From IMG/VR virus record IMGVR_UViG_3300035698_011322, positions 1 to 64,000 of that record: DNA of 64,000 nucleotides. One strand, 5' to 3'. The DNA is from a virus. Positions 3,791 through 57,133 of the stretch are shown piece by piece (the first letter of the stretch is position 1; every line of letters starts with the position of its first letter). Under the pieces are notes generated by a model. That model saw only the letters and a program-made list of their open reading frames with translations, was not told where the DNA came from and did not search any database. Made by a program: the position numbers and the translations under genes.

Positions 3791-4240
3791 ATGGAAGAAC
3801 AAGAAAAGCAAGAATTGGTTGATAGGTCTGAGGAAGAGCAACGGATCATAGATGAGCTGAAGGCGGAACACCCTATTGATGAAATGGTCAAGTTCTCCGA
3901 GATCGATATAATGGATAAGCTCAAGGACAATAGCTTTATGATTGTCAAGTATAGAGAGCATTACTATCTGGAACAATCAAAATTTGAGAAACTTGAAGAT
4001 CTATATAACAAACTCCTAGGCATGCGGTATAAGCACTACAGATTCGATGATGAACGAGAATTTTCAAAAGTCGAGATTGAATTATATTGCCTACCATCAG
4101 ATACAAAAGTACTACAATTTAAGAAGATTATGTCACGGCAAAAAATAAGAGTAATGTTCTTTGAGATGGCTTACAAAGGCTTTGAAAAACAGCAATGGGC
4201 TATGAAAACATATTCAGACAATTTGAGAAGTGGAGTATAA
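3791..4240 (+). CDS. uvsY: UvsY-like recombination mediator
   Basis: Helical ~150-aa protein ending QQWAMK, located upstream of uvsW as in T4-like phages. Confidence 0.7.
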   Translation: MEEQEKQELVDRSEEEQRIIDELKAEHPIDEMVKFSEIDIMDKLKDNSFMIVKYREHYYLEQSKFEKLEDLYNKLLGMRYKHYRFDDEREFSKVEIELYCLPSDTKVLQFKKIMSRQKIRVMFFEMAYKGFEKQQWAMKTYSDNLRSGV

Positions 4241-4902: not shown

Positions 4903-7392
4903 ATGAATAAAGAGGTAAGAATATCAAAGCACAACCTAATGCAAATCAAAATCAACACCGAGAGTGCTGAATATATTGCTGGCATGAAAGAGTTGTTTAC
5001 TCAGTATGTGGAGGGATTTCAATATACTCCTAAATTTCGTAGCGGAAGCTGGAACGGAAAAATTTGTTTAGTAAGTAGTCCACACAACACTCTACCCTAT
5101 GGACTGTTATTAGATCTTATAAAGTTTCATAAATTGCACTTCTCAAGTTTCCATTTATCTGTGGATGATGATGTTAAAGAGTTCTTCAAGGGCCCAGAGC
5201 TGAAGGTCAAGAATGATCTTTCACTCAAACCAAGATTCTATCAAAAGGAAAGTATACGAATATGCCTAGATAGAACAAAGGGTATCATTAGATCAGCAAC
5301 CGCTTGCCATGCAAAGGGTGATAAAATTATAATATTTGATGGATCTATAAAAAACATAGAAGATATAAAAATAGGTGACTTTGTAATTGGAAAAGATGGT
5401 AAACCAAAAAAAGTTATCAACGTTTTTAATGGTATCGATGATCTATACGAAATAGATCCAAAAAATAATAGAGAATCAATAACTGTAACAGGAAATCATT
5501 TATTACATTTAACCTTCACAAATCGTGGCGGAAAATATAATAAAAGATGGAACTCATTCGAAAATATTTCTGTTGAGGAATATTTAAATAAGAGTAAAAC
5601 ATATAAACATCAATCAAAACTTTATTATAATAAAGAAGAAATAAACTTTTCTCAGAAAAAAATTGATTGTAATCTTTCACCATATTTTATAGGATTGTAT
5701 TTAGGTGATGGTGGAAAAAATGTCTGTTCTGTATATAACATAGATGAAGAATGTATAAACGCTATTTATGAAGAAGCTGACAAATTTAATATGGAAGTTA
5801 TAACTAAGTCATATAGCAAATATGGTTATTTTATTAAAGGATCAAAAAACAAAAGAAATATAATATTCAACGAATTAGAAAAAATAGGAATTATATTTGG
5901 AAGAAAACAAATGTGCGCATGTGAGGATAGATTTATACCAAAAATAATATTTAACCAAAGTATAGATTATAAAAAAGAAGTTCTTGCTGGATTAATTGAT
6001 TCGGATGGATGTTTAACAAACAGAACATATTATGAATATTGTTCAAAATCAAAAAAATTATCTGATGATGTTAAATTATTATCTACTTCATTGGGATTGG
6101 TATGTTCAATGTCGATTAAAGTTGTAAATGATGTGGATTATTATAGAGTGGTAATAATGGGTGATATATTAAGAATACCTGTTAGAATAAAAAGAAAACA
6201 AAATGTTAAAAAATCAACAACAGATGCTTACAAAAGTGGATTCAATGTAAATTATGTTGGGAAAGGGGAATATTATGGCATCCAAGTAGAAGACTCTTTA
6301 TATTTAACAGATGGTGGTATGGTAACTCATAATTCAGGTAAATCACTAGTGATCTCATATATAATGAAAACTCTACTAGAGAACAAAAAGTCTGGTGTCA
6401 ATAGAGTATTATTATCAGTAACGAGAGCTGCACTAGTAGAGCAATTTTATAATGATATGCTAGAGTATGGTATACCAGATAAACTAATAGGTAGGGTGTA
6501 TACCAAAAGAAAAGAATGGGACACACCTATCACTATATCCACATGGCAATCATTAATGAATAATCATGATAAACTTCCTAACTATGATTGTATAATATGT
6601 GATGAGGTACATGGTGCGAAATCTCATGAGCTTAAGAAAATATTAGTCAAGGCAACCAAAGCTAACTATAGATTGGGGTTCACAGGCACACTCCATTCAG
6701 CCGAGCTTGACAACTGGAATACAAAATCGTATTTGGGGCCTGTGTTGAAAGAATACTCATCTGGCTTTCTAGCAGAAAAGGGATTCATAAGTAAATGTAA
6801 TGTCCATATATTAGGAGTAGAATATGAAGCTGGTGATGATATTAAAGGGGATTATAATGAGGTCAAAGATATTGTGTTCACTAATAAATACAGAATCAAT
6901 GTCATTAGTGATCTTATTAATAAGCTTGATCATAATGTTTTACTTCTAGTTGGGTTGGTAGAAAAAGAAGGCAAAGTTCTTCTGGACGAGCTGAAGAGTG
7001 TTAATAAAGAGGTGGTGTTTCTCTCAGGCAGGGATAGTGTTGAGGATCGAGAAAAGTGGCGGAATGAAATGGATAAACGAAATGATATTGCTCTGATTGC
7101 CACATATGGAATATTTGCTGAGGGTATAAATATTCCAAATTTGAAGTACACTATACTTGCATCCCCGTTTAAAGCAAAGATTAGAATACTTCAGTCAATT
7201 GGTAGGAACCTTCGGATGCATGAAAACAAAAAACATGGAGCACATATATTTGATATACATGACCATGTTAAGTATCTTGAGAAGCATGGGGATGTGAGGT
7301 ATAGGTTCTATGATAATGAGAAGTTCGGTATTAATGAATATAATCTAATAGAAGGAACTGAGTTCGATACATCACTTCTTAATCTGAAATAG
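4903..7392 (+). CDS. uvsW: UvsW-like SF2 helicase containing an intein
   Basis: Walker A split as SATA/SGKS, DEVH, GFTGT, QSIGRNLR. Confidence 0.92.
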   Translation: MNKEVRISKHNLMQIKINTESAEYIAGMKELFTQYVEGFQYTPKFRSGSWNGKICLVSSPHNTLPYGLLLDLIKFHKLHFSSFHLSVDDDVKEFFKGPELKVKNDLSLKPRFYQKESIRICLDRTKGIIRSATACHAKGDKIIIFDGSIKNIEDIKIGDFVIGKDGKPKKVINVFNGIDDLYEIDPKNNRESITVTGNHLLHLTFTNRGGKYNKRWNSFENISVEEYLNKSKTYKHQSKLYYNKEEINFSQKKIDCNLSPYFIGLYLGDGGKNVCSVYNIDEECINAIYEEADKFNMEVITKSYSKYGYFIKGSKNKRNIIFNELEKIGIIFGRKQMCACEDRFIPKIIFNQSIDYKKEVLAGLIDSDGCLTNRTYYEYCSKSKKLSDDVKLLSTSLGLVCSMSIKVVNDVDYYRVVIMGDILRIPVRIKRKQNVKKSTTDAYKSGFNVNYVGKGEYYGIQVEDSLYLTDGGMVTHNSGKSLVISYIMKTLLENKKSGVNRVLLSVTRAALVEQFYNDMLEYGIPDKLIGRVYTKRKEWDTPITISTWQSLMNNHDKLPNYDCIICDEVHGAKSHELKKILVKATKANYRLGFTGTLHSAELDNWNTKSYLGPVLKEYSSGFLAEKGFISKCNVHILGVEYEAGDDIKGDYNEVKDIVFTNKYRINVISDLINKLDHNVLLLVGLVEKEGKVLLDELKSVNKEVVFLSGRDSVEDREKWRNEMDKRNDIALIATYGIFAEGINIPNLKYTILASPFKAKIRILQSIGRNLRMHENKKHGAHIFDIHDHVKYLEKHGDVRYRFYDNEKFGINEYNLIEGTEFDTSLLNLK
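5305..6333 (+). mobile_element. Intein with LAGLIDADG endonuclease (343 aa) inserted in the uvsW Walker A motif
   Basis: Begins CHAKGD, ends THN followed by Ser; block B TGNH; GLYLGDG and LAGLIDSDG. Confidence 0.95.
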
Positions 7393-8594: not shown

Positions 8595-8678
8595 ATTACC
8601 CTCCGTATTTTTTAATTCTTGCTGTGCTGGTTTTTTAAGATTTATGATATTCCCAGTGTACTGGTCTCTCTCTCTCTC

Positions 8679-9308
8679 TCATATAAATAATTTCTCAGTC
8701 AGAACAGCATTACCAGTATTCTTTATATTCTCATATATGTTCTCATATATTTTTGGTATCAATTCTTCACTAACAAAAGCATTACCAGTATTCTTTATAT
8801 TCTCATGTATATTCTCATACACACCAGAAATAGCATTCCATTGTGATTCCGAAAAGTTCATTTCTTTAAGTGAAAATGTGTAATATATTTTATTCTTATA
8901 TTCATGTACATAAACAAAATATTTACTAAATAATTTACTATCGATTCTGAACTTATTTATTATACTATCATAGTATATTTTTAAATATTTTTCAGCATCA
9001 AATTCAAATGATTCTGGTTTCTTTTCCTTTATAAACTGATATATTGCTGTCAGAAGTTTATTAAAAAGTTCTGTTTTTTCTGTTGTAGTAAAATTTCTAA
9101 ATTCTTTTGATAGTTTAATAAGCTCATTTTTATTATCTGATAACACCCAGTATATTATCCATTTTTGTATAAAATTTTCATAAAGCGTTTTAAATAGATA
9201 TTTTTGATTTTTATGTATAATCGTCCATTCATTATTACCAGTTTTGCTAACATCTTTATCAAATTTATTTAATAGCACACCTTCTTTTATGTGGTGTACT
9301 GGTCTCAT
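8679..9308 (-). CDS. Hypothetical protein with capsid-targeting-like N-terminus and C-terminal duplication
   Basis: MRPVHHIKE; YENI(H/Y)ENIKNTGNA twice. Confidence 0.65.
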   Translation of the reverse strand: MRPVHHIKEGVLLNKFDKDVSKTGNNEWTIIHKNQKYLFKTLYENFIQKWIIYWVLSDNKNELIKLSKEFRNFTTTEKTELFNKLLTAIYQFIKEKKPESFEFDAEKYLKIYYDSIINKFRIDSKLFSKYFVYVHEYKNKIYYTFSLKEMNFSESQWNAISGVYENIHENIKNTGNAFVSEELIPKIYENIYENIKNTGNAVLTEKLFI

Positions 9309-9832
9309 ATAAACAATTCCAATAACTCATATATTAATTTAGTTTGTTCCTTATTGAATTTAAATTTTTTAACTGATTTATTTGTCCATGCTTTCAAATC
9401 ATCTTTTAGTTCTTGACTCATTGCTGCCCAATCAGCCATCATTTCAGCAATATCTATATCACTCATTTTATCTACACTACTATGTGCCTGTGGATGATGT
9501 TTGTTTACTCCTATATGATGTTTGGATGCTTTCTTTACTTTATCCTTTATACCATCTGGATATTCAAATCCTCTTCCAGCATTTTTTTCTTTATGCCACC
9601 ACGAAAGCCATATATATGGTATTCTTTCCTCTTTGCTATACTTTGATTTATCATGGTTTTTAGCTCTTGACATTAATTGAACTTTATTTAAATCATCTCT
9701 TTCTTCAGCAATTGTATATAAATTCTTTTGAACTCTTTTGATATGTTCGTTAGTTCTTTTCTCATAAAAATCAACCATCTCTTTTGTTGGTTGGGTTTCT
9801 TTAGCTTCTTTTATATAGTGTGTTAGTCTCAT
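9305..9832 (-). CDS. HD-superfamily phosphohydrolase (DUF5662-like)
   Basis: MRLTHYIKE; H..V, HDKSK, HH..N.HHP, EMMADW. Confidence 0.75.
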   Translation of the reverse strand: MRLTHYIKEAKETQPTKEMVDFYEKRTNEHIKRVQKNLYTIAEERDDLNKVQLMSRAKNHDKSKYSKEERIPYIWLSWWHKEKNAGRGFEYPDGIKDKVKKASKHHIGVNKHHPQAHSSVDKMSDIDIAEMMADWAAMSQELKDDLKAWTNKSVKKFKFNKEQTKLIYELLELFI

Positions 9833-10356
9833 GTGGTTTCCCAGAATATCTCGGCAAATTGCCCATCAAAACCCCATCCCCTTCTCAATTCACTTCCAAA
9901 TGTTTTCTTGAATAATTTCCAGTATTCATTAACACTAACTTTATACCATGGCCACCCATTAACAAAATCTTTATCTGGTGTTCCATTGCCCATATGTGTC
10001 CATACCATATCTGTGTTCTTTAGCTTAATTGTCTTATATAGTTTCTTGAACTTTCTGTTTACTACCTTATTGTCTAATCTCTCCATTTCAATATATGGTA
10101 GTTTATTATACTCTTCTTGGCTCATACCATATTCTTTTTCAAAATCCTTTACTTTTAGCCTATGTTTTTCTTCATCACCCACATATCCACCTAGAAAAGA
10201 CAAATCGGATTTTCCGGCTTGAACAGGTAACAACCATATACCTTTTCTAGCTGGCGCTCTTAATCTTTTTCTATGAGTCTGTTTTTGCCCAGACATCGGC
10301 CCTAAACGAATAAAGAACTTATCCATGCCTTCTTTTATGTAGTTTTTTAATTTCAT
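9829..10356 (-). CDS. Hypothetical protein with capsid-targeting-like N-terminus
   Basis: MKLKNYIKE start with ATGA overlap. Confidence 0.7.
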   Translation of the reverse strand: MKLKNYIKEGMDKFFIRLGPMSGQKQTHRKRLRAPARKGIWLLPVQAGKSDLSFLGGYVGDEEKHRLKVKDFEKEYGMSQEEYNKLPYIEMERLDNKVVNRKFKKLYKTIKLKNTDMVWTHMGNGTPDKDFVNGWPWYKVSVNEYWKLFKKTFGSELRRGWGFDGQFAEIFWETT

Positions 10357-34521: not shown

Positions 34522-35244
34522 TCAAAAGTGCATCCTATTCATTTTATCAACACTATGAATGTTTATACGCCTTTCATCATTTTTATAACCATTACAAAGA
34601 ATATAAGCAGATTTAGGTGTAGTTCTAGTAAGTCGTTCCCACTTTAGGCCATTCTTATATCTCACAAGAACTTTAACACCCTCATAATGTTTATTCTTTC
34701 TCAGACCAAGTTTTTCAAACTGAACATCTGCAATAGTTTGTTTAACTTTGGCAATTGATTTTCTCTGATTCTTATTAAATTCAAGTTTTTGCTGGCCTTC
34801 GTTTACTATGAATTCGTCAGCCATACCAACGATATCAAACACAACCGCATTGGTAACAACTTTCCATAACTCATTGTTTTTAAAGTCATATATACTGAAT
34901 TCGCGTTTGCCTCTATTATATCCCTTTTTTATTTCACGGATTGCAATGATAACACCATGAAGGGTTTTTTCTTTTTTCTTGAAAATAAATCTATGGCGAA
35001 TGATAGCACCGACAACGGCCTCGAATACTGAATTAGCGAAAGAACTAGCTTTCTGATCAAAAGCAGATGTATTGAATGAACCGTCAAGAGCCAATCCCCA
35101 TTTTCTGGCAAGAGTCAAAAGTGCATAAGGTCGGTCTTTATTAGCAATGACTTCACGCATTTTAGCACCTGATGCAAATTCCGAATTGGTCATATCGGGG
35201 TGAACTTGTTTAGATATTTCTCTGAATAGTGATTTATCATTCAT
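34522..35244 (-). CDS. Protein with N-terminal J-domain-like HPD motif
   Basis: FREISKQVHPD...KMREV. Confidence 0.6.
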   Translation of the reverse strand: MNDKSLFREISKQVHPDMTNSEFASGAKMREVIANKDRPYALLTLARKWGLALDGSFNTSAFDQKASSFANSVFEAVVGAIIRHRFIFKKKEKTLHGVIIAIREIKKGYNRGKREFSIYDFKNNELWKVVTNAVVFDIVGMADEFIVNEGQQKLEFNKNQRKSIAKVKQTIADVQFEKLGLRKNKHYEGVKVLVRYKNGLKWERLTRTTPKSAYILCNGYKNDERRINIHSVDKMNRMHF

Positions 35245-35459
35245 TATACAATCTCCCCTTCCCCCCAACCGCCTGACCTTACTTTAATTTTTTCGATATT
35301 ACCCTCGTTACGCGGGCACAATATATTATTCATATGTTCCTTAACAAGTTTTTCGCACTTTTCTGCCAATTTCCAACCAAGATCATATGTCCCTGTTCCA
35401 TCATCCTCAATTGATGCTTCAAAAGACATATCTATATATACTGTAAATTTCTTTTTCAT
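35244..35459 (-). CDS. Hypothetical protein
   Basis: Coupled ORF. Confidence 0.6.
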   Translation of the reverse strand: MKKKFTVYIDMSFEASIEDDGTGTYDLGWKLAEKCEKLVKEHMNNILCPRNEGNIEKIKVRSGGWGEGEIV

Positions 35460-35705
35460 TTAGGCCACCACCTTTGTGAGCAATCTATCAATTCTTTCAT
35501 GTGTAACAGATTTACCGAAAACAGCACGACTTTGGCTGGATATTCTGCCAGACCGAAAAGCACCACCTTTACCAATAAAAATTTTAGGGTCAATGCCATC
35601 TTTTTCAAAGGTTCTGTACTTTCTGGATTTAGTCAAAATTTCCTCATATCCTCGAAGGGTTACGAATTCCACAAGTTTTTCAGATACCGTTTTTCTTTTA
35701 GCCAT
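35460..35705 (-). CDS. Small basic early protein
   Basis: AAGGA RBS; early promoter upstream. Confidence 0.7.
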   Translation of the reverse strand: MAKRKTVSEKLVEFVTLRGYEEILTKSRKYRTFEKDGIDPKIFIGKGGAFRSGRISSQSRAVFGKSVTHERIDRLLTKVVA

Positions 35706-35792
35706 GATTTTCGATTCCTTTCAATTTTTTCTTGATTATAAAAATATTGTAACACAGAAAATGTTTTATGTAAACCACTTATTCTAGAGCAT

Positions 35793-35821
35793 AAAAAATG
35801 GGGATTCTAAGGATATCCCCA
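35793..35821 (-). terminator. Intrinsic terminator
   Basis: TGGGGAT...ATCCCCA followed by T6 on minus strand. Confidence 0.75.
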
Positions 35822-35846
35822 AAGCCTGTCGGGTCACAGCAGACAA

Positions 35847-35974
35847 CACTGGGTGATTTCGGTTCTAGCTTGATTTAAGTGAGTGAACCTGGCATGACCT
35901 ACAATGCTCACTGGGTGATTTCGGTTCTAGCTTGATTTAAGTGAGTGAACCTGGCATGACCTACAATGCTCACT
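35847..35974. repeat. Exact tandem duplication of a 62-bp non-coding unit
   Basis: Copies start at 35847 and 35909. Confidence 0.95.
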
Positions 35975-36001
35975 ATCCGAATCCAATAATTAGGGGGTTC
36001 A

Positions 36002-36175
36002 TTACCCTATGGTAATGAACTCAAAGTCATTGAATTTCAGGTTATCGCTCATGCGAATCATATTGCGGACGAACTTTTCAGCCTTGAAACGAGCGGAGAA
36101 AACGCGGGCTTTGGAAGTGGATTTGGAAGCTACAAGAACACGACCTTCTTTAATAACAATAGTGGATTTTGCCAT
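36002..36175 (-). CDS. 57-aa basic early protein
   Basis: Manual translation MAKSTIVIKEGRVLVASK...FEFITIG; AAAGGAG RBS; promoter 36212-36240. Confidence 0.8.
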   Translation of the reverse strand: MAKSTIVIKEGRVLVASKSTSKARVFSARFKAEKFVRNMIRMSDNLKFNDFEFITIG

Positions 36176-36256
36176 GATATAATCTCCTTTGATTTTTTAT
36201 TGAACTGTTTTAATATAACCCATTGTATCGCCAATGTAAATGCCTAATGTTTTAAT

Positions 36257-36499
36257 TCATATAAAAAACAACTCTTCTTCTAATTCAAACTCATTATATA
36301 ATTGAAACCTATCATCCATATATCCTTGACCAGTGCAATCCCCTTCTAATGTAATACTATGAGGTCTAGTAGATTTAACAACTACATATGTATACTCAGA
36401 AAAAAGCCAATCCAGATGTTTAATAAAATCATCAATCCATGCCGGTCCGGTAAAACAGATATTCTGTACTACTTTATCTCCAACTTCAAATTTACTCAT
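36257..36499 (-). CDS. Hypothetical protein
   Basis: GAGGGG RBS; resembles 3401..3667 at both ends. Confidence 0.65.
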   Translation of the reverse strand: MSKFEVGDKVVQNICFTGPAWIDDFIKHLDWLFSEYTYVVVKSTRPHSITLEGDCTGQGYMDDRFQLYNEFELEEELFFI

Positions 36500-36549
36500 A
36501 TCAACCCCTCATGTAACGTTTTAATTTTGTTTTTCTCTCGACTGAAACC

Positions 36550-37067
36550 ATACTAACAACCTTGAACCGACTTGTAAATCATAAATAAAATTTTAAGAAT
36601 AATTAAAAAATATGGCTAAATGAATGTATAACTTCTCACCTTATTTAATTCGCTTCTGAAACCATACTTTCCAATTGAAATTGGTTGTAACGTTTTGATT
36701 TTGTTTCGTTTTTGACCGTACCAACGTTGGAGTTTGTTTAAATTGTTTTTGTTTTATTTTCCGAAGAAAATTTGGTAGGAAAATCAAGGGTTTACTAAAC
36801 GTCTTAAGCCGTTTTTCAACTCTTCCAATGTTTTATGACATCGGCTACCCGAACTGTTTTAATATAATTCATTGTATCGCCAATGTAAACGCCTATGGTT
36901 TTTTCTTTAATTAACTCATAGGGTAAAAATTTAGATTCTTAAATGAAATCGGTGGTTTATATAACCAAAGTTTCGGGCAGAATCGACATCTTTGTAAAAT
37001 GTTTTTAATATAATTTATTTTTCCTCTCGACTGAAACTATAATACCAAATTCCACCCACAATGTAAA
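36550..37067 (-). promoter_or_regulatory. Battery of leftward early promoters
   Basis: TTTACA-N17-(TAGTAT/TATATT/TATTAT) with -35 boxes at 36573, 36884, 37062. Confidence 0.7.
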
Positions 37068-37144
37068 TCATAAAATTATCTCCAATAAAATCAGATCCTT
37101 ATATAATCCTATGGGTTTTCAAGAGAAAATCGAATCAGGATTTT

Positions 37145-37660
37145 ACTCAAAATATCGATTCTGGGCAACTCAGGTGACGCTGGTTGGGTCAAAAAACATT
37201 TCGAATGTTATGGGTCGCGTTATGGAATCAAATATTTTCTGTGGTCTAATATCAATATCCTTAATGATGTCAGGGTGTTATCCTATATAATTATATGCCG
37301 CAACAGTATCCTCAATGATTTCTGGGGTTTATGTGTGCAGTGTTTTACCACAGTGACCTACCCGATGCATGCCTCATATTAGGGGCACTTATGCTCTACC
37401 TGAGGCACAGTGCCCAACTTGAGGCACAGTGCCACCTACCTGAGGCACAAAATGTGCAGTGAAATCCTGCACCTTTTATCCAATGATCTCAGGGAATTAT
37501 AACGTGTCATATAATTATACATGGCAAGGCCCTGATTTTATTGGAGATATTGATAATGGATCGATTTTCTGGTCGTGATTCCATAACGGCCCATTATATC
37601 TCTTTTGGATTTTAACCCACCAGAATTGACCTGAGTTGCTCTGAGGGTATATTTTGAATG
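37145..37660. repeat. ~500-bp imperfect inverted repeat with central TGAGGCACA direct repeats; candidate origin
   Basis: Mirror blocks 37165-75/37629-39, 37218-30/37576-88, 37286-97/37508-19 all centre on ~37402. Confidence 0.8.
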
Positions 37661-37716
37661 TACTTTCAGGAGGTTATGGTGATCCAAATATGCCCCAAAA
37701 TTTTTAATATGAGGCG

Positions 37717-37935
37717 GTTTACATCTGAGTCAAAAATTGGTAGAATGGTTTTGTGGTTGGGAGATTTACCCCGACCCATGTGTCTCAAAAAACAAATTAA
37801 TATGAGACAGTTTACAATCGAGTTAAAAATTGTTATAGTGTACGTGTTGTTCGGAAATTGTTTTTAAAAACGGAAATGGTTTTAAAAATTGTTTGAAAAT
37901 TGTTCGTTTACAAGTTAGTTCAAAGTTGTTAGAAT
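37717..37935 (+). promoter_or_regulatory. Three tandem rightward early promoters
   Basis: GTTTACA-N17-TAGAAT/TATAGT at 37717, 37810, 37906. Confidence 0.8.
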
Positions 37936-37979
37936 GTGTTTATTGAGTGAGTAAATTGTTAAAGAAATTGTTAACTAAA

Positions 37980-38605
37980 TAGTCTTGTAATCTTGGCCGA
38001 TTGGCGGTTAATAGTCCTGTGAAGAAAAACACCTAGCGCTGGGTGCAAAGTAACAGGTTAAATTGGGATGGCTAGTTCTTCAAACCTTTAAAAACCCTTG
38101 AGTCGCGACTCAAGGAACCGATTGAAATTCAAAACAAATTGATATACTCGACAGCAAACGTGATGGTTAGTCGCAACAAGTACTAGCTAGGCTAATAGCG
38201 GACTATATTGATCTTTGGGTTAACATTATCGGATATTAAAATCCCAAGTGGGGATATTGTTTAGGGAATTAACCTGGTTAGATATTCCTTCTTGTAAGGT
38301 CGGTGGCGTGGCATCGAATAATAAAATAATCCACGACGCTTTAATAATGATACCCCAGTCCTACAGATAATGCTTCTGAAATAAGAGTATATGGCCGCAT
38401 GGTGAAACAATATCGCTGGGGGATTTACAATTTTATTGGTTCCAGTGGATTAAATGCAACGGATTCAGACCGTTCAGCCAATAATGAATTAAACATATGA
38501 TCTAAAACCCTGTATCACCTATCACCTAATAGGTGGGAAACCTACAAGCAAGAGGTATAGAAAAGGGTATTCGTCTGTTAAAATCAGAAGAGATCATATA
38601 AATTT
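37980..38605 (+). ncRNA. Candidate large structured ncRNA (~620 nt), family unknown
   Basis: No ORF >=60 aa; many helices and long-range complementarities; triple promoter. Confidence 0.55.
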
Positions 38606-38676
38606 TTATTCGTGTACAATGGTAAATGATTGTGTTATTCTTAATATTATTAACTACAGAAGGGAGTAACTCTCAA

Positions 38677-38925
38677 ATGGCAAGATATGACCGTAGTAAA
38701 GACATTGCGGTTTTTGAAAGAACGATAGGTGATGAAATCAACAAATCGCTTAAAGTGTCCGTAATGTCCTATAATGATGGAGAAAGAAAACTCCAGATTG
38801 GCCCCCGTACTTATATTAAACGCAATAGGTCCACTGGTTACGGCAAAGCAGGTCGCATGACCCTTGATGAAGTAAAGTCAATCACAGACCTTATGCCTGA
38901 AATCGAAGGTGCAATGAACGCTTAA
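38677..38925 (+). CDS. PC4/YdbC-like ssDNA-binding protein
   Basis: VSVMSYNDGERKLQIG.R...GKAGRMTLDE; GGGAG RBS. Confidence 0.65.
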   Translation: MARYDRSKDIAVFERTIGDEINKSLKVSVMSYNDGERKLQIGPRTYIKRNRSTGYGKAGRMTLDEVKSITDLMPEIEGAMNA

Positions 38926-39010
38926 TAATCAACAGGGCGGTGTTTTTCTGGGGACCACAGTAGGTCCCAGCCGCCCATTAACAAGATTGTAAGAAAAAAG
39001 GGAACATGAA

Positions 39011-39379
39011 ATGAAAATAACACATGATAGATTTAATAGGACAGTGTGGGCTATTAAGAAAGACTTTACAGGAGCGCTGGCTAAGTACTTAGTAATACAA
39101 TCACCGTATACCGTGCCAGAGAACCTATCAACGTGCATAGAGAAATTCGACCAGAAGCTTGACAAACTGGCATCATTTGACACCAATGGAATGGCTGAAA
39201 TCTCTTTGTTGGGGTTAACCGCTAATGTAAATTCAATCCTTGAAAGCATCCCCGAAATAATGGCTTTGAACGAGCCAAACGATGATTTTATAGACATCCT
39301 GGCGGTAGCTCAAAACATAACCTGTGCATTCGCAGAGGAAGCAGAGTCTCAATGTTATCGGGAACACTGCATGGGCTGA
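39011..39379 (+). CDS. Hypothetical protein
   Basis: 122-aa ORF. Confidence 0.65.
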   Translation: MKITHDRFNRTVWAIKKDFTGALAKYLVIQSPYTVPENLSTCIEKFDQKLDKLASFDTNGMAEISLLGLTANVNSILESIPEIMALNEPNDDFIDILAVAQNITCAFAEEAESQCYREHCMG

Positions 39380-39474
39380 TCCTATTATTAACATGGGATC
39401 ATATCTGGTGTAAGGCATTACCCAGTGATAACATGGGTTTAAAAGATATTATTGACTACAATATAACAAAAGCA

Positions 39475-39525
39475 CTCGCATAGAGATCATTCTCGCATAG
39501 AGATCGTTCTCGCATAGAGATCGTT
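39475..39525. repeat. 17-bp tandem repeat x3
   Basis: CTCGCATAGAGATC(A/G)TT. Confidence 0.9.
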
Positions 39526-39734
39526 TAGTTTGAATAGTTCAGATATCTTCTTAACCAATCCGCAAAAATCCTTGTGGTTTACATCATATCGATCATTTAT
39601 TATGGTGATAATAACGCAAAAACTATAATAAGCTTGATCGAGTGTAAAGTAGAAATAAGTCGTGTTCATTTTAGCGTTATGGATAAAAGCACACTTAAAG
39701 TAAACCGGGTATGAATTTAAAAAAGGAGTGTACA

Positions 39735-39938
39735 ATGATTAAACAAGATGATATATTAGAAATTAAGTTCAGGATCAAAGAAGTTCAAGAATCATTACTT
39801 AATCTTACATGTTCTTTAGAAGAAATTGGTTTTAGAGAAAGCGATTTAGAAATAATAAATTTATCGAATACAATTGATTCACATTTTGATAGTATTAACG
39901 AAGTAATGAAGTTGAGTTTGTTTAAAAGGAAAGTTTAG
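39735..39938 (+). CDS. Hypothetical protein
   Basis: AAGGAG RBS. Confidence 0.6.
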   Translation: MIKQDDILEIKFRIKEVQESLLNLTCSLEEIGFRESDLEIINLSNTIDSHFDSINEVMKLSLFKRKV

Positions 39939-40041
39939 AAAAGTGATTTACATATTATCTTAATTTTGAGATAATAAATCCAACTGTTAGAAAAATCTTC
40001 TTCAAGGTTTTGAAAAAACAGTAAAAATCAAAGGAGGCAAC

Positions 40042-40338
40042 ATGAATAAGAAAGGATTGACGAATTTCGTAGCAGAGGAAGCAGGGATTACTAAAAAGGA
40101 CGCTAACGCACTGATCGGTGTGGTTCTGGATGGTGTCACCAGCGGTATTACTACCGATGGTAAAGTGACCCTGGTTGGTTTCGGGACATTTTCAGTAGTG
40201 ACCAGGAACGCCCGTATGGCTCGGAACCCACGGACTGGGGAAGCGATTTCGGTTCCTGAGAAAACGGTTCCGAAGTTCAAACCGTCCAAGAAACTGAAGG
40301 AAGCTACCCTCGGTTTCGAGGCACCTGCCGCAGAGTAA
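40042..40338 (+). CDS. hup: HU-family DNA-binding protein
   Basis: GFGTF, RNPRTGE, PKFKPSKKLK. Confidence 0.96.
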   Translation: MNKKGLTNFVAEEAGITKKDANALIGVVLDGVTSGITTDGKVTLVGFGTFSVVTRNARMARNPRTGEAISVPEKTVPKFKPSKKLKEATLGFEAPAAE

Positions 40339-40358
40339 TAATACTCGGTAGGATTGAC

Positions 40359-40396
40359 AAAAAAGGGATGATGGCGAGTTCATCATCCCTTTTTTG
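40359..40396 (+). terminator. Intrinsic (bidirectional) terminator after HU
   Basis: AAAAAAGGGATGATG/CATCATCCCTTTTTT. Confidence 0.85.
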
Positions 40397-40468
40397 TTTA
40401 CATTTTGAATTGTGTGTGGTACACTTCTTATGAATGAGGGCAAATCAAATGAAAAAAGGATAAATCAA

Positions 40469-40735
40469 ATGAAAAAAGAAAAAATAATAGTTTTTGATTA
40501 TACTGATGCTATTCATGGTTCCGCGCCTTGGCATTATAAAGATGATCACTCGCCTGTAAAATATGAAGTTGAGGCATGGTGCCTTCAAGGTGATACAGGG
40601 TTTAGAGCGTTTTTTTATTTAGGCGACAAAATATGTGAAGCTCATGGCGATGATGGTCATTGGTGGTTGATAGGGTGCATGCATAAAAACTGGATTAAAG
40701 ACTTCAAAAATGTTGTTAATTCTATTGAAGAGTAA
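40469..40735 (+). CDS. Hypothetical protein
   Basis: AAGGA RBS. Confidence 0.65.
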   Translation: MKKEKIIVFDYTDAIHGSAPWHYKDDHSPVKYEVEAWCLQGDTGFRAFFYLGDKICEAHGDDGHWWLIGCMHKNWIKDFKNVVNSIEE

Positions 40736-40748
40736 AGGGTGATCAAAA

Positions 40749-41102
40749 ATGGCAAAGATCACAACTCATTGTGAGGACTGCGTAAGATTATTAGGAAAAC
40801 CATATAAAGAAGTCCATGTGTGGTTGGATCATTATGCCAAGAAGTTCAATCCTTTTATCTATCTTGAATATCATAGACAATTCAGGCACACAGAGGTGGC
40901 ACTTAATAAAAAATTCAAGGAATGGGGTTTCTATAGACAACAAGCCGCTAAAATCCATATCATAAGAGACAATGAAGATTTTGTTCTCAGTAAACTATTT
41001 TGTCAAGTAGAAGTTGAGGAAATAGATGCTCTGTATGAAAAAGCAAAACAGTGTTTACATCCTGGTGAAATCGATTATAATGTAGATAACTATAAATTTT
41101 AA
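40749..41102 (+). CDS. His-rich hypothetical protein
   Basis: H....VH.WLD...HRQFRH...H. Confidence 0.7.
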   Translation: MAKITTHCEDCVRLLGKPYKEVHVWLDHYAKKFNPFIYLEYHRQFRHTEVALNKKFKEWGFYRQQAAKIHIIRDNEDFVLSKLFCQVEVEEIDALYEKAKQCLHPGEIDYNVDNYKF

Positions 41103-41122
41103 GGTGGGGGTGGGGGGTTAAA

Positions 41123-41365
41123 ATGGTAAAAATTTGTGTTAAATGTAATGTGTGCCATGATCGATATCCAAAGATAATAGAAGTAGATGCTCGAGAAGTC
41201 AATGAGCAAATGCGGGAACTGTTGGGAATTGTAGAACAAGATAATTGGATAGTTGATTGGCAGTCCGGTGACGCGACTTGTACAGACTGTTTGGGTGAAA
41301 TAGGTATAGAGGTTGAAATTGACCCCAAAACCGGTGATTACAAAACACTGTCATTTAAGGAGTAA
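41123..41365 (+). CDS. Zinc-binding hypothetical protein
   Basis: CNVC...CTDC. Confidence 0.6.
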   Translation: MVKICVKCNVCHDRYPKIIEVDAREVNEQMRELLGIVEQDNWIVDWQSGDATCTDCLGEIGIEVEIDPKTGDYKTLSFKE

Positions 41366-41426
41366 ATACACAGAAATACTCATGATAAATATAGAAGCAA
41401 AGAAAAATATTTTTTTCAAATAACTA

Positions 41427-41490
41427 GTTTACATTTTATCTCAAAAAAGTTATAATAAATCTTAGTCAAAGTAAGAAAGTTATATAAATA
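41427..41490 (+). promoter_or_regulatory. Tandem early + late promoter of tRNA array 1
   Basis: GTTTACA-N17-TATAAT then TATAAATA (41483-90); same layout at 45143-45206. Confidence 0.8.
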
Positions 41491-41598
41491 GAATTGAGGA
41501 TAACGTTGAAGAATATTTTAGTCAAATATTGCAAAATCTGGATAAAGTGGACTATAAAACAAACTCCAGTATATTCTCTTCAATAAAAGGAAAATATT

Positions 41599-41721
41599 AT
41601 GTCAAGAACAACTAAAAAAACTACTACAAGGGGCAATGATTATCGATATATAGTCGAACATCATATTTATGCAATCGTACCGACAACGCATATTATCCCA
41701 ACAGAGGAACATAATATGTAA
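41599..41721 (+). CDS. Leader peptide 1 (40 aa) of putative tRNA-array attenuator
   Basis: AAAGGA RBS; MSRTTKKTTTRGNDYRYIVEHHIYAIVPTTHIIPTEEHNM. Confidence 0.75.
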   Translation: MSRTTKKTTTRGNDYRYIVEHHIYAIVPTTHIIPTEEHNM

Positions 41722-41724
41722 GTA

Positions 41725-41790
41725 TTAGCTGAAATATAAGTAATAACCTAAAGGGTTTCAGCTAAGTTAAAAGTTGAAATCCTTTTTTAG
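41725..41790 (+). terminator. Terminator/antiterminator switch 1
   Basis: 41725-34 pairs with 41756-65; alternatively 41750-63 pairs with 41772-85 ending in a U-run. Confidence 0.8.
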
Positions 41791-41795
41791 TTTAT

Positions 41796-43682: not shown

Positions 43683-44384
43683 ATGAAAATTATAATAGCA
43701 GGCGATGTTCATGGTCGATTCGGTGAACTAAACACACTTATCAGTAAACAAAAACCAAATCTTGTGATCTGTTGTGGTGACTTTGGTTACTGGCCTCACT
43801 TTGGTAAAGATGAGTTTAATAAAATCAAACCACAAGGCTCAAAGATACTGTGGTGTGATGGGAACCATGAAGATCATTGGTCTTTGAGAGACAGAAAAAC
43901 CGATGAATTCGTGAAAGACGTTCATTATATGCCAAGAGGATCAACATTTACATTAAGCGATGGTCGTGTCTTACTCTTTATGGGTGGCGGAGATTCAATT
44001 GATAAAAATTCTAGAACAACTGGTGTTGATTGGTTTCCAGAAGAAGTGATTGGACAAAAAGATATTGAGAACCTTCCTGACAAGAAAATTGATATTGTTA
44101 TATCTCATACTTGCCCACTTGAGCTATTAGGTGAAATGAGAGGATATCGAGAAAAAAAAGTAGAACCTTCTAATCACGCTCTTAGCTACATTTTAGAAAA
44201 ATATAATCCTCGCCAATGGTTTTATGGTCACTGGCATTCATATAAAGAAGTGTTACTGAGAAGCACAAAGTTTACTGCTCTATCATGTTTGCCTACTTAC
44301 ATGGGTCATGGTAGATGGTGGATTGAGTTAGATGAGAAAATATCGAGTAAAATATCAACATTTAGTTTTAATGATAATTTTTAA
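43683..44384 (+). CDS. Calcineurin-like metallophosphoesterase
   Basis: GDVHG, GDFG, GNHE, SHTCP, GHWH. Confidence 0.92.
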   Translation: MKIIIAGDVHGRFGELNTLISKQKPNLVICCGDFGYWPHFGKDEFNKIKPQGSKILWCDGNHEDHWSLRDRKTDEFVKDVHYMPRGSTFTLSDGRVLLFMGGGDSIDKNSRTTGVDWFPEEVIGQKDIENLPDKKIDIVISHTCPLELLGEMRGYREKKVEPSNHALSYILEKYNPRQWFYGHWHSYKEVLLRSTKFTALSCLPTYMGHGRWWIELDEKISSKISTFSFNDNF

Positions 44385-54054: not shown

Positions 54055-54822
54055 ATGAATGATGAAAATATGGATAGTATTGGTGAGCCATTTGATTTTA
54101 AAAAGTACTTAGACTCGAAATATCCTTTACTGGAAGTGTTTAGAGAAAAAACACCAGGAACACATAAGCATTCACAAAATGTTGCTTTGCTGTGTGAGGC
54201 TGTTGCATTAGGTCTTGATTTGAATGTTGATGAAATGAAGGTAATTGGGTTGTATCATGATATTGGTAAAATGAACTTCCCAGAAAATTTCTCAGAAAAT
54301 CAGAATGGAACTAATGTGCATGATGGTTATGATTCTTTTGTATCATATCATCTAATAACAAGACATATTGGTGATTCGGCTGTTATTTTATTGAATAAAA
54401 CAAATTTACCTAGAGATACTATTTCAAAAATAACAGAGCATCATGGCAATACTGTTCTTCAATATTTTTATGAAAAATCTGAATCAAGTACAGAAGAATC
54501 ATATAGATATAAATGTTCATCACCAAGTACCATTGAGTCAACTGTTTTAATGCTCTGTGATTCTATTGATGCTACCGCTAGAGCACTTTCTGCTGCGGGT
54601 AAATTGGGTTCAATAGAAGATAGAAAGGCTGTTGTTAGTAGTACTATAAATAGATTGATGGATGATGATCAACTTGATGGAATGACGGTTGGTTCTATTA
54701 AAGTTATAAGAAGAGTTCTGTTACGAGAGTTAGAAACGATTTATCATAAACGTGAAGTATATGGTAACGAAAAAAAAGAAGTTAAAAATGATGATTCTGT
54801 AAGGATAGAAGATAAGGAGTAA
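54055..54822 (+). CDS. Stand-alone HD domain of the PgpH/7TM-HD type
   Basis: PGT..HS, YHDIGK, F.ENQ, EHHG, YFY, YRY, MLCDS.DA..RAL. Confidence 0.85.
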   Translation: MNDENMDSIGEPFDFKKYLDSKYPLLEVFREKTPGTHKHSQNVALLCEAVALGLDLNVDEMKVIGLYHDIGKMNFPENFSENQNGTNVHDGYDSFVSYHLITRHIGDSAVILLNKTNLPRDTISKITEHHGNTVLQYFYEKSESSTEESYRYKCSSPSTIESTVLMLCDSIDATARALSAAGKLGSIEDRKAVVSSTINRLMDDDQLDGMTVGSIKVIRRVLLRELETIYHKREVYGNEKKEVKNDDSVRIEDKE

Positions 54823-55282: not shown

Positions 55283-57133
55283 ATGAGTGAACTGAATAAA
55301 CTGATCGAATATGATAATTTGTATTATAATGAAGGAACGTCGCCTCTTGATGATGGCGAGTATGATAATCTAAAGAAAGAACTCAAATTAAAGTTTCCTG
55401 ACGATCTATATTTTACTGAGGTAGGAAGTCAGGTAAAAAATAATGGAAAGGTGAAACTCAAGTATACACTAGGTTCGCTCAATAAAGTCAAACTTGATAC
55501 ATTACAGAAATGGCTTGATAAGCAGACATCTGATATTTTTATCATAAGTGAAAAAATGGATGGTGTGTCTTTTTATGTGAACTATAAAAATAAAGAAGTG
55601 GTGTCTGCATCAACAAGGGGTGATGGTAGTTATGGTCAAGATATAACTGATAAAGCTAAGGTTTTTTGTGGCCCTATAAAAACAAATAAAGATTCATGGT
55701 TTCGATGTGAGGCAATGCTTGTTGGATCAAAAATCAATGAACAACTTGGTTTCAAAACAAGAAGAAATGGCGTTGCTGGTATTATAAATCGTGATGGTTT
55801 AAAAAATGTAGAACACATTACACCATTTTTCTATGAACTACTAAATTATGATGAAATACTTCCAGACTCAGATGAAATAGGAAGATTTGATTTTATGAAT
55901 GAAGTTGTGGATATGGGTAGCTCTAAAAATTTCATACCTTTGTTTTTTATATACAACAAGAATAATCACACAACAGCAGATATCATAACATTTTATGATA
56001 AAATGAAAGAAAAGAATGCATATGATATAGATGGTCTTGTTATAACACCAATTGACTATAAAAGAGAGAATGTCCTCTACCCTAAGAATAAAGTAGCATT
56101 TAAAATCAATGAAAAACCCATTAATGTCGTTGTGAAAGAAGTAATGTGGAGTGTTACAAGAACAAGTAGAGTGGTTCCATTAATTAATATCGAGCCTACT
56201 GAAATTCAAGGTGTTACTATTTCTAAGGCAACGGGATTTAATGCAAAATATATTGTTGACAATAATATAGGTAAAGGATCTATTGTAAAAATTATTAGAT
56301 CGGGGGATGTTATACCCACAATAGTTGGTGTTCAGAAGGAATCCAATCCTTATTTACCAACAAAATGCCCAGCCTGTGGTGCTGATCTGGTATGGGAAAG
56401 TGTTGATCTAAAATGTACCAATGATGATTGTTGGCGAAAATCATATAAAGAACTTGAGCACTTTCTCAGAGCAATGGGCGCCGAGAACATAACAGAGAAA
56501 ACACTCATGAAGCTCGGTGTGTCTCACATTGAAATGTTATATGAGATCGATGAGTGGAGTATTTCAACTATGGAAGGATTCGGTGTAAAGAGAGCACAAC
56601 AAATAATAGACGAGATACAAGGAACATTGTTTTCAACACCCGAAACACTACTAAGATCATTTGGTATAAAGAATATTGGCAAATCATTATCAAGAGATAT
56701 AACAAAACATTTGTACAGAATATCCGATGATGATAATACAGTAATGGAATATATATTTTCATTGCCATATGAAGAACTAATAAAAATTGAAGGAATCGGA
56801 GAAAAAATTGCTGAAGTATTTGTTTCGGAGATAAATAAACATAGATGGAAGTATGATTTTCTTAAAAGTGTTGGTTTGGTCTTTTCAAACGAAAACGAAA
56901 CAGGAAAGTTTGATGGAATGAAATTTACTTTAACAGGGAAGGGGAGTTTGGGAAGAAATGAAATTCGGACTCTTATTGAACGTAAGGGTGGTTTGGTCAA
57001 GGGTATTAGTAAAACTACTAACTATCTTGTTGTTGGTGATATAAATACAACAACTAGTAAGGCTAAAAAGGCTAGAGAATATGGTGTAGAAATTATCATA
57101 TATGAAGATCTGATGAAAATGTTAGGAGTATAA
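55283..57133 (+). CDS. ligA: NAD-dependent DNA ligase
   Basis: YY...D.EYD, EKMDG, TRGDG, DGLVI, RSGDVIP, Zn finger, BRCT. Confidence 0.96.
   Translation: MSELNKLIEYDNLYYNEGTSPLDDGEYDNLKKELKLKFPDDLYFTEVGSQVKNNGKVKLKYTLGSLNKVKLDTLQKWLDKQTSDIFIISEKMDGVSFYVNYKNKEVVSASTRGDGSYGQDITDKAKVFCGPIKTNKDSWFRCEAMLVGSKINEQLGFKTRRNGVAGIINRDGLKNVEHITPFFYELLNYDEILPDSDEIGRFDFMNEVVDMGSSKNFIPLFFIYNKNNHTTADIITFYDKMKEKNAYDIDGLVITPIDYKRENVLYPKNKVAFKINEKPINVVVKEVMWSVTRTSRVVPLINIEPTEIQGVTISKATGFNAKYIVDNNIGKGSIVKIIRSGDVIPTIVGVQKESNPYLPTKCPACGADLVWESVDLKCTNDDCWRKSYKELEHFLRAMGAENITEKTLMKLGVSHIEMLYEIDEWSISTMEGFGVKRAQQIIDEIQGTLFSTPETLLRSFGIKNIGKSLSRDITKHLYRISDDDNTVMEYIFSLPYEELIKIEGIGEKIAEVFVSEINKHRWKYDFLKSVGLVFSNENETGKFDGMKFTLTGKGSLGRNEIRTLIERKGGLVKGISKTTNYLVVGDINTTTSKAKKAREYGVEIIIYEDLMKMLGV

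Follow-up and report, generated by a model that had tools for sequence, protein, structure and literature searches.

The window (the whole 64,000-nt stretch of DNA that was analysed) is part of a 74.7-kb IMG/VR contig (estimated to be 31% complete) from an uncultured jumbo phage of a salt lake. An Rfam scan showed at least 19 tRNA genes, and the proteins of the phage had only distant relatives, of cyanophage type. The stretch occurs in six sequencing runs, all of them salt-lake metagenome DNA and none of them RNA; the contigs from these runs were identical and of low depth, and gave neither variants nor transcript ends. A strand-switch region containing iterons and inverted repeats borders a non-coding unit of about 660 nt (from about 37942 to a U-run at about 38607), which is located on its rightward side; genes are oriented leftward upstream of the unit and rightward downstream. 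About 735 nt without a conserved ORF extend up to the ATG at 38677, which begins the gene of an 82-aa protein (the anchor gene) that belongs to no Pfam or PHROG family. A Tad5-like anti-Thoeris gene, which is of anti-defence type (PF25190, E 3.8e-23), lies 330 nt downstream of the anchor gene start and is among the first genes downstream of the unit. The 3' part of the unit was named R1, and the tRNA array of the window begins 3 kb downstream of it. An RNA ligase and a metallophosphoesterase are encoded within the tRNA arrays of the window. The features of the unit and its borders are given below.

37718-37746, plus strand: promoter A (TTTACA, 17 nt, TAGAAT, upstream TG; 10/12 consensus)
37811-37839, plus strand: promoter B (TTTACA, 17 nt, TATAGT, upstream TG; 10/12 consensus)
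37907-37935, plus strand: promoter C (TTTACA, 17 nt, TAGAAT, upstream TG; 10/12 consensus)
37942-38494, plus strand: ORF-free, fast-evolving leader with patchy identity to the related locus L042
38495-38599, plus strand: R1, a five-helix RNA of about 105 nt (covariance model, covariation and fold)
38603-38607, plus strand: run of five U, a possible weak terminator, starting 4 nt past the closing helix of R1
38613-38641, plus strand: promoter D, the anchor gene's own (TGTACA, 17 nt, TATTCT, with TG)
38677-38925, plus strand: 82-aa anchor gene, with the ribosome-binding site AAGGGAG at 38660-38666

Comparison was made chiefly with L042, a locus whose entire 4 kb is syntenic with window 35398-40317 at 67-77% identity and from which only the Tad5-like gene is missing. 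An earlier note on this DNA, made from the letters alone, had described a candidate structured non-coding RNA of about 620 nt under three tandem promoters, possibly of a new class. The three promoters were located on the plus strand, each matching the consensus at 10 of 12 positions, and all three were kept in L042. They are of the sigma-70 type and are arranged in tandem 93-96 nt apart, with promoter B as a 93-nt direct repeat of the promoter A unit (repeat family D1) and both of them within a 63-nt direct repeat. A cluster of six AAATTGTT words was found at 37827-37972. The position of the -10 box of promoter C predicts a transcript start at about 37942. Promoter D had a counterpart in L042 (TTTACA, 17 nt, TATCCT) and was also conserved in a second locus, L004. 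An internal promoter at 38402-38431 (9/12) was rejected, as its -10 box was not kept in L042. The three near-consensus promoters with extended -10 boxes suggest high early expression of the unit, and the terms "abundant" and "early", which the note had applied to the RNA, derive from these promoters only.

No credible ORF was found in the region of about 37942-38677, where the longest frames were of 40 aa (plus strand) and 49 aa (minus strand). The ORFs of the unit had no Shine-Dalgarno sequence, and in L042 stop codons or indels of a length not divisible by three disrupted them. The description of the unit as ORF-free was thus confirmed, with no ORF carrying a Shine-Dalgarno sequence and none surviving the comparison with L042. 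The GC content of the unit was 0.35-0.42, compared with 0.28-0.31 in the promoter flank and 0.33 just downstream; it is indeed less AT-rich than both flanks, as had been noticed, yet its GC is about that of coding DNA here. The Infernal/Rfam scan that had been proposed was run on the whole window at the gathering score, and the unit matched no Rfam family, with no tmRNA, RNase P, intron or other family found in it. At E values up to 10 on 37500-38800, only noise was obtained (RAGATH-7 at E 0.63, and others). ARAGORN found nothing on 35000-41795. The Rfam and ARAGORN results agreed with the observation that the unit carries no tmRNA, RNase P or intron hallmarks.

Folding of the 683-nt RNA was no better than that of dinucleotide shuffles (z -0.92 on the plus strand and -0.68 on the minus strand). 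Complementary words were only modestly enriched, with 27 complementary 7-mers against 16.5 +/- 5.0 and 10 complementary 8-mers against 3.9 +/- 2.4. All the sequence words quoted in the note were found where it had placed them, and their pairings fared differently in L042. The long-range pairs ATAGTCC/GGACTAT, CAGGTTAA/TTAACCTG and CCCCAG/CTGGGG were not kept there, with the 3' partner of the second lying inside a 54-nt indel, and the CACCTAG/CTGGGTG hairpin was not clearly retained. The hairpin CCTTGAGTC/GACTCAAGG was retained with compensatory changes, as was the long-range pair ATATGATC/GATCATAT, which is the closing helix (P1) of R1. A non-coding unit behind strong promoters of early type, with a structured RNA in it, was present as proposed, but a single large fold was not supported (z -0.9). 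The proposed new class stood in so far as it is absent from Rfam, but it is limited to the 3' part of about 105 nt (R1) and does not cover the whole 620 nt or so. The evidence does not support one ornate RNA of about 620 nt like ROOL or GOLLD.

Searches for relatives of R1 were made from the anchor gene, with the 82-aa protein locating three IMG/VR loci. A blastn comparison of the region with these three anchor loci gave one significant match, between window 38491-38602 and L003:6967-7073 (79% over 112 nt), and the copy in L003 lies 3 kb downstream of the anchor gene. A covariance model of R1 was built from the window/L003 alignment, and the collections were scanned with core patterns. The metagenome scan yielded L042 (117 bits), while a search with the P5 word yielded L046 (89.8 bits). 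Four copies of R1 were obtained in total (window, L042, L003 and L046), scoring 90-144 bits. The core patterns, both exact and degenerate, were found in IMG/VR only in L003/L006 and L046.

The remaining matches were set aside. These were 29 loci (L007-L035) that were chance matches and served as background only, a chance match within coding DNA (L036), and the chance matches L037-L041 and L043 from the metagenome scan. Three matches in bacterial MAGs (GTDB genomes, P5 19-mer) had nothing in common with R1 beyond that word. The 1.1-kb region gave no blastn match among GenBank phages, and R1 alone, at E up to 10, gave a 29-nt match in the huge phage LR756508.1, which was rejected because it lies inside a TnpB-like coding region and folds unlike R1. 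The R1 and R2 models found no further copies over nine whole related phage records, an absence that is weak evidence because the contigs are 15-53% complete, apart from one at 100%. The closest homologs of the anchor protein, P0001, P0002 and P0004 (71-78% identity), are encoded on contigs outside this comparison. R1 is rare, with its four copies in uncultured salt-lake and sediment-type phages, and its immediate reach is limited.

The structure of R1 comprises five helices on the plus strand, as listed below.

38495-38503 with 38591-38599, plus strand: helix P1, 9 bp, closing
38507-38511 with 38564-38568, plus strand: helix P2
38516-38522 with 38529-38535, plus strand: helix P3, a variable hairpin
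38541-38543 with 38553-38555, plus strand: helix P4, an invariant hairpin with loop ACAAGCAAG
38574-38577 with 38585-38588, plus strand: helix P5, an invariant 4-bp stem with the 7-nt loop UUAAAAU

The helices form two nested three-way junctions, in which P1 joins P2 and P5, and P2 opens onto P3 and P4; P5 stacks beside P1, and its loop contains the palindrome UUAA. Of the 106 pair cells, 98.1% were standard pairs; sliding the 3' partners by 1-3 columns lowered this to 37-51%. Changes on both sides of a pair were found in 13 of the 28 pairs, against 1-3 in the slid controls, and none of 500 shuffles reached the observed values. The double-changed pairs were distributed as six in P1, four in P3, two in P4 and one in P2, with none in P5. 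RNAalifold, with no structure supplied, recovered P1, P2, P4 (plus an A-U/G-U pair) and P5. The single-sequence fold z values of the four copies were -3.35 (window), -3.12 (L003), -3.79 and -2.40. Between the window and L003, 56 of the approximately 105 nt of R1 are identical, and the outer stem and one inner hairpin differ yet stay complementary. The covariation that the note had asked to be checked was strong over the four copies of R1, and in the 5' region it amounted to a few modules in two sequences. The independent covariation events in R1 are few because there are four copies, two of them close relatives, and folding is the only support for P5 and most of P2, which never vary.

The strand of R1 was read from two observations. 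Read from the opposite strand, the U·G cells (14-104) and the G·U cell (52-68) would turn into A·C mismatches, and the L003 copy had a fold z of -3.12 on the plus strand and -1.76 on the minus strand. R1 is therefore read from the plus strand, on which the promoters also lie. It is invariant in its junction runs (AAA, GGAA and UAUAG-N-AA), in the P4 loop, ACAAGCA(A/G)G, and in the segment UCG-UCUG-UUAAAAU-CAGA-AG. Taken together, R1 is very probably a real structured RNA of a new family. At its 3' side, the terminator scan did not call the P1 stem and the U-run; a U-rich tract follows R1 in L042, and U8 follows the analogous end in L004.

The leader evolves differently from R1. Relative to L042 it contains indels of 13, 24 and 54 nt and stretches at 26-40% identity, which is the random level, and about half of the unit cannot be aligned. 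The blocks conserved with L042 are the promoters, 38046-38075, 38090-38135, 38210-38235, 38296-38330 and 38420-38607. Among the related contigs, the leader sequence was found in L042 and in no other. Its modules are as follows.

38096-38115, plus strand: hairpin H2 (CCTTGAGTC/GACTCAAGG), followed by the conserved block GGAACCGATTGAAATT
38118-38133 with 38214-38232, plus strand: long-range helix H3, 15 bp, enclosing about 80 variable nt
38245-38298, plus strand: segment of 54 nt missing from L042, which holds TTAACCTG
38305-38337, plus strand: hairpin H4, with the conserved 19-nt loop CATCGAATAATAAAATAAT
38433-38484, plus strand: domain P0, a branched hairpin directly upstream of R1, 90-97% identical in L042

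H2 had fold z values of -3.15 (window) and -2.2 (L042), with two pairs changed on both sides. On the minus strand, H2 resembles a terminator. H3 connects two of the conserved blocks, and in RNAalifold with the window and L042 only, all of its cells were paired, with two adjacent double changes against none in the slid controls. The arms of H4 are GGCGTGG/CCACGAC in the window and GTACTGG/CCAGTAC in L042, giving two double changes that were read by hand; H4 was not counted by the tool because MAFFT mis-gaps its 3' arm. The changes in P0 were one-sided only and gave G·U pairs, and P0 is absent from L003 and L046. Between the window and L042, H2, H3, H4 and P0 together contained 6 pairs with changes in both partners. 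In the controls for these modules, shuffles reached the observed value in 36 of 500 cases and slid controls in none. The compensatory support for the 5' modules comes from two sequences and a structure derived from them, and is suggestive only. The conserved modules may point to a long RNA that works as a whole.

The genomic contexts of R1 differed among the four copies. The long non-coding unit has R1 as its last element in the window and L042, with a U-rich tract, promoter D and the anchor gene next. In L046, where R1 lies within 5756-5871, the order is tRNA-Arg, a promoter, R1, 6 nt, tRNA-Ala, tRNA-Tyr and the rest of an array of 20 tRNAs; the promoter (TTTACA-17-TATAGT) has a -10 box that ends 7 nt ahead of P1. 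In L003, R1 begins 4 nt past the stop codon of a small gene, and the tRNA array lies 460 nt downstream. The description as a non-tRNA RNA gene within a tRNA transcription unit of a phage thus applies to R1 in L046 only and not to the window copy. No partner protein consistently adjoined R1 across the contexts, and R1 is linked to tRNA biology by position alone.

The layout of the window, with tandem promoters, 0.7-1.3 kb of ORF-poor DNA, a separate promoter and the anchor gene, was also found in L004, L003 and L071, where the sequence is unrelated; neither L004 nor L003 has leader sequence in common with the window. The unit of L004 ends in a tRNA-like fold, with a 7-bp acceptor-like stem and a D-like arm, and then U8. 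In this RNA a GNRA-capped stem replaces the anticodon arm, and the T-arm is GUGGG-UUCGACC-CCCAC; calls of this end as a tRNA or tmRNA were negative. The unit of L071 contains a tRNA-His and a second tRNA in the equivalent slot. Because a tRNA-like RNA occupies the slot in L004 and real tRNAs occupy it in L071, the slot is an RNA-gene island in which R1 is interchangeable with RNAs of the tRNA type.

From these results a mechanism is proposed in which host RNA polymerase would read the unit of about 660 nt from the three tandem near-consensus promoters. R1 would be the functional core and an autonomous RNA gene, and the leader would mostly be a carrier with a few lineage-specific modules (H2, H3, H4 and P0). 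Since in L046 it has its own promoter and stands directly before tRNA-Ala, R1 could be freed by ordinary tRNA processing, keeping a tail of 6 nt if RNase P cut at tRNA-Ala. R1 would then accumulate as a stable RNA acting in trans. Its invariant junctions and the loops of P4 and P5 may be bound by a protein or RNA of tRNA processing, repair or targeting, with R1 acting, for example, as a decoy or cofactor. The results above establish the promoters, the absence of coding, the fold and strand of R1 and its settings in the genomes, whereas the abundance, the processing, the action in trans and the partner are what we infer here. This full reading, with R1 as a stable trans-acting RNA and the leader as its carrier, is held with moderate confidence.

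The first alternative is that the unit is a cis-acting leader of about 660 nt for the rightward early operon, with R1 serving at its 3' end as a protector against exonuclease, a processing site or an unusual terminator. Phage T7 likewise has three tandem early promoters (A1-A3) and a leader. In three of the four contexts (window, L042 and L003), R1 is at the 3' end of a longer upstream RNA, U-rich tracts follow it in the window and L042, as U8 follows the analogous end in L004, and the Tad5-like gene of anti-defence type is among the first genes downstream. Against this alternative, R1 is separated from the anchor gene by a conserved promoter, and in L046 R1 stands at the 5' end of the transcript, with tRNAs next and no U-run. 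The invariance of the loops and junctions is more suggestive of specific recognition than of simple stability, and the P1 stem with the U-run was not called as a terminator. The cis-acting leader was judged unlikely.

A second alternative takes the whole 660 nt or so as one large ornate RNA in the manner of GOLLD, in which the 3' domain is conserved and the 5' domain variable. It agrees with the keeping of H2, H3, H4 and P0, with their 6 double-changed pairs between the window and L042, and with the ORF-poor units of similar length behind the same promoter battery in L004 and L003. Several results oppose it, namely the fold z of -0.9 for the whole region, the 26-40% identity with L042 over about half of it together with the three large indels, and the presence of R1 in L046 and L003 without any of the 5' region. 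The L004 and L003 leaders share no sequence with that of the window, and the ROOL and GOLLD models of Rfam were unmatched even at E up to 10. One large RNA was therefore considered quite improbable.

Because the RNA ligase, the metallophosphoesterase and the Tad5-like gene are nearby, it is plausible in general terms that R1 has a role in counter-defence or in the contest over tRNAs. In its specific form, with R1 as an RNA counter-defence agent that is hugely produced at the start of infection and acts as a decoy or sponge, this role is doubtful. Two versions of it are possible. R1 could be a mimic from the tRNA world that occupies a host tRNA-targeting nuclease or processing enzyme, or it could be an orphan aptamer, consisting of an aptamer-like junction core without an expression platform, and sequester a nucleotide used in immune signalling. 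The early promoter battery, the tRNA and tRNA-repair neighbours and the Tad5-like anti-Thoeris gene fit with such a reading.

R1 might also belong to a new class of self-cleaving ribozyme and trim phage transcripts beside tRNAs. It resembles such a molecule in its size (about 100 nt), in having multi-helix junctions whose nucleotides are invariant, and in peripheral stems that covary freely, and ribozymes are known beside phage tRNAs, for example the theta ribozymes (PMC10879173). No known ribozyme model matched, however, and cleavage would be unneeded in L046, because there the promoter sets the 5' end and RNase P can cut the 3' side at tRNA-Ala; the ribozyme was considered very unlikely.

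It is hardly credible that the unit encodes small proteins, or that R1 owes its conservation to a short ORF of 22 aa (plus strand) or 23 aa (minus strand), since a Shine-Dalgarno sequence is missing from these frames, although both the window and L042 keep them open, and in L046 the minus-strand frame lacks a start codon. The substitutions fall as paired changes in stems and alter residues instead of being synonymous, and all other ORFs are broken in L042. An element acting as DNA (an origin, operator or packaging site) is just as implausible, for although the strand-switch region with iterons and inverted repeats borders the unit and six AAATTGTT words lie near its start, none of these lies in R1 and all are at the transcript start or upstream of it, the G·U pairs and strand asymmetry of R1 point to RNA, and R1 in L046 is placed exactly as an RNA gene.

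With R1 as a stable trans-acting RNA remaining the preferred reading, comparison was made with known systems. To our knowledge, none of the structured RNAs that phages carry near tRNA islands (T4 RNAC and RNAD, ROOL and GOLLD) has a known function, and this is a long-standing puzzle. R1 is a small and tractable example: its secondary structure is clear, its core is invariant, and at about 105 nt it is short enough for direct assays of cleavage, of ligand or protein binding, of processing by RNase P, and for structure determination. Its contexts offer a contrast between a three-promoter battery in one lineage and an ordinary member of a tRNA operon in another. The interchangeability of the slot suggests that such orphan RNAs act in the phage tRNA pathway, that is, in supply, repair or protection against targeting.

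A riboswitch was not supported, as a conserved promoter lies between R1 and the next gene, R1 in L046 stands before a tRNA, and R1 in L003 follows a stop codon; the known aptamer models gave no match on 37500-38800 at E up to 10. The theta ribozymes, which are minimal HDV-like ribozymes, are small structured RNAs embedded in phage tRNA arrays (PMC10879173). They lie directly 3' of a tRNA, whereas R1 in L046 lies 5' of a tRNA behind its own promoter, and R1 differs from them further in having no nested double pseudoknot and no Rfam match. The hammerhead, twister, twister-sister, hatchet, pistol and HDV-like models of Rfam gave no match. With the tRNA-like RNAs (the tmRNA domain, YrlA and viral examples), R1 shares a stem that closes its ends, with a hairpin stacked by the 3' strand. 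It differs from them in its 9-bp P1, its nested three-way junctions in place of a cloverleaf, and a P5 loop that lacks C56 of the T-loop. The tRNA-clan, tmRNA and Y RNA models of Rfam gave no match on 37500-38800 at E up to 10, and a Ro/TROVE protein was not seen among the proteins tested.

GOLLD has a conserved 3' region and a variable 5' region (PMC12286853). GOLLD (RF01998) and ROOL (RF03087) resemble the unit in being encoded by phages, in often being near tRNA islands and in length (about 660 nt for the unit). The conserved part here, by contrast, covers only about 105-170 nt, and R1 is a stand-alone gene elsewhere. The extensive conserved structure over 500-800 nt by which ROOL and GOLLD are recognised was not found in the unit, and neither model (RF03087, RF01998) matched the window at the gathering score or 37500-38800 at E up to 10.

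The phage T4 RNAs RNAC and RNAD are stable non-tRNA RNAs of 119-139 nt in the phage tRNA cluster, which are cotranscribed with tRNAs and have unknown roles (PMC3014915). Model R2, with filters off, gave only noise (at most 12 bits) on T4 68500-74500 and nothing over rnaC or rnaD. RNAC has a canonical T-arm (CCGGGUUCGAAUCCCGG), which R1 lacks, and because of this T-arm RNAC is closer to the L004 RNA than to R1. The window copy of R1 also differs from RNAC and RNAD in lying 3 kb from the tRNA array, behind a long leader. In kind, RNAC and RNAD are the nearest analogue of R1, which in L046 fills the same sort of slot.

Analysis of the region in which the coding strand switches (37077-37560) showed the following repeats in the window:
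37392-37450, three direct repeats of 19-21 nt with TGAGGCACA
37077-37100 and 37526-37549, inverted repeat flanking the direct repeats
37245-37297 and 37508-37560, inverted repeat flanking the direct repeats
The same region also appeared as a reverse self-match against L042, the contig syntenic with the window; it could serve as an origin or as a hub of regulation. A second set of repeats was found at the tandem promoters. Six of the 14 AAATTGTT words of the window, all on the + strand, fell within 146 nt (37827-37972), surrounding promoter C and the initial 30 nt of the transcript. Four AAAAGTTGT(A/T)AC repeats occupied the same place in L004 (3085-3150), a related phage locus, and both sets may be operators through which a regulator controls the promoter battery.

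Three hairpins within the ORF-free leader look like intrinsic terminators when read on the - strand, where a T-run comes after each stem:
38029-38046, - strand, terminator-like hairpin
38095-38116, - strand, terminator-like hairpin, with its GTTTTT tail retained in L042
38241-38255, - strand, terminator-like hairpin
These hairpins may block antisense transcription; alternatively, they may be no more than modules of the + strand RNA that combine an A-run with a hairpin.

The 122-aa gene at 39011-39379 matched Tad5, the Pfam family of the type I Thoeris inhibitor (PF25190, E 3.8e-23). Since L042, although otherwise syntenic, lacks this gene, it has the look of an anti-defence cassette that can be swapped. 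The window tRNA arrays enclosed a metallophosphoesterase (43683-44384) and an RNA ligase (PF09414; 45440-46153), which together look like a tRNA-repair toolkit; an HD-domain protein (54055-54822) and an NAD-dependent DNA ligase (55283-57133) were located further along. A 240-aa phage protein (53218-53940) carries at its end a sorting motif of the PEP-CTERM type (PF07589, E 3.5e-7), which may hint at an exosortase-bearing Gram-negative host.

In the related locus L003 (2892-3995), two tandem promoters (2892 and 2966) precede an ORF-poor stretch 5' of the anchor gene, which has its own promoter at 3933. The approximately 950 nt between the tandem and anchor-gene promoters contained short, doubtful ORFs only, and the stretch had no sequence in common with the window leader and no match in Rfam. 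The corresponding stretch 5' of the anchor gene in L071 (8650-9850) is an RNA-gene island, each gene with one promoter, and contained:
within 8650-9850, four repeats of AGAAATTGACAAAGGA-type promoters
9115-9189, tRNA-His
9202-9269, second tRNA (34.6 bits)
about 9765-9795, further T-arm-like end

In the sister phage locus L004, the equivalent ORF-free unit finishes with a tRNA-like RNA (3801-3911) that lacks an anticodon loop and on which ARAGORN and Rfam made no call. The predicted fold comprised an acceptor-like stem of 7 bp (UAUACUG/CAGUAUA), a D-like arm containing GG, a GAGA-capped stem, a long extra region holding a second T-arm-like hairpin, and a T-arm (GUGGG-UUCGACC-CCCAC) followed by U8. 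This T-arm resembles that of T4 RNAC.
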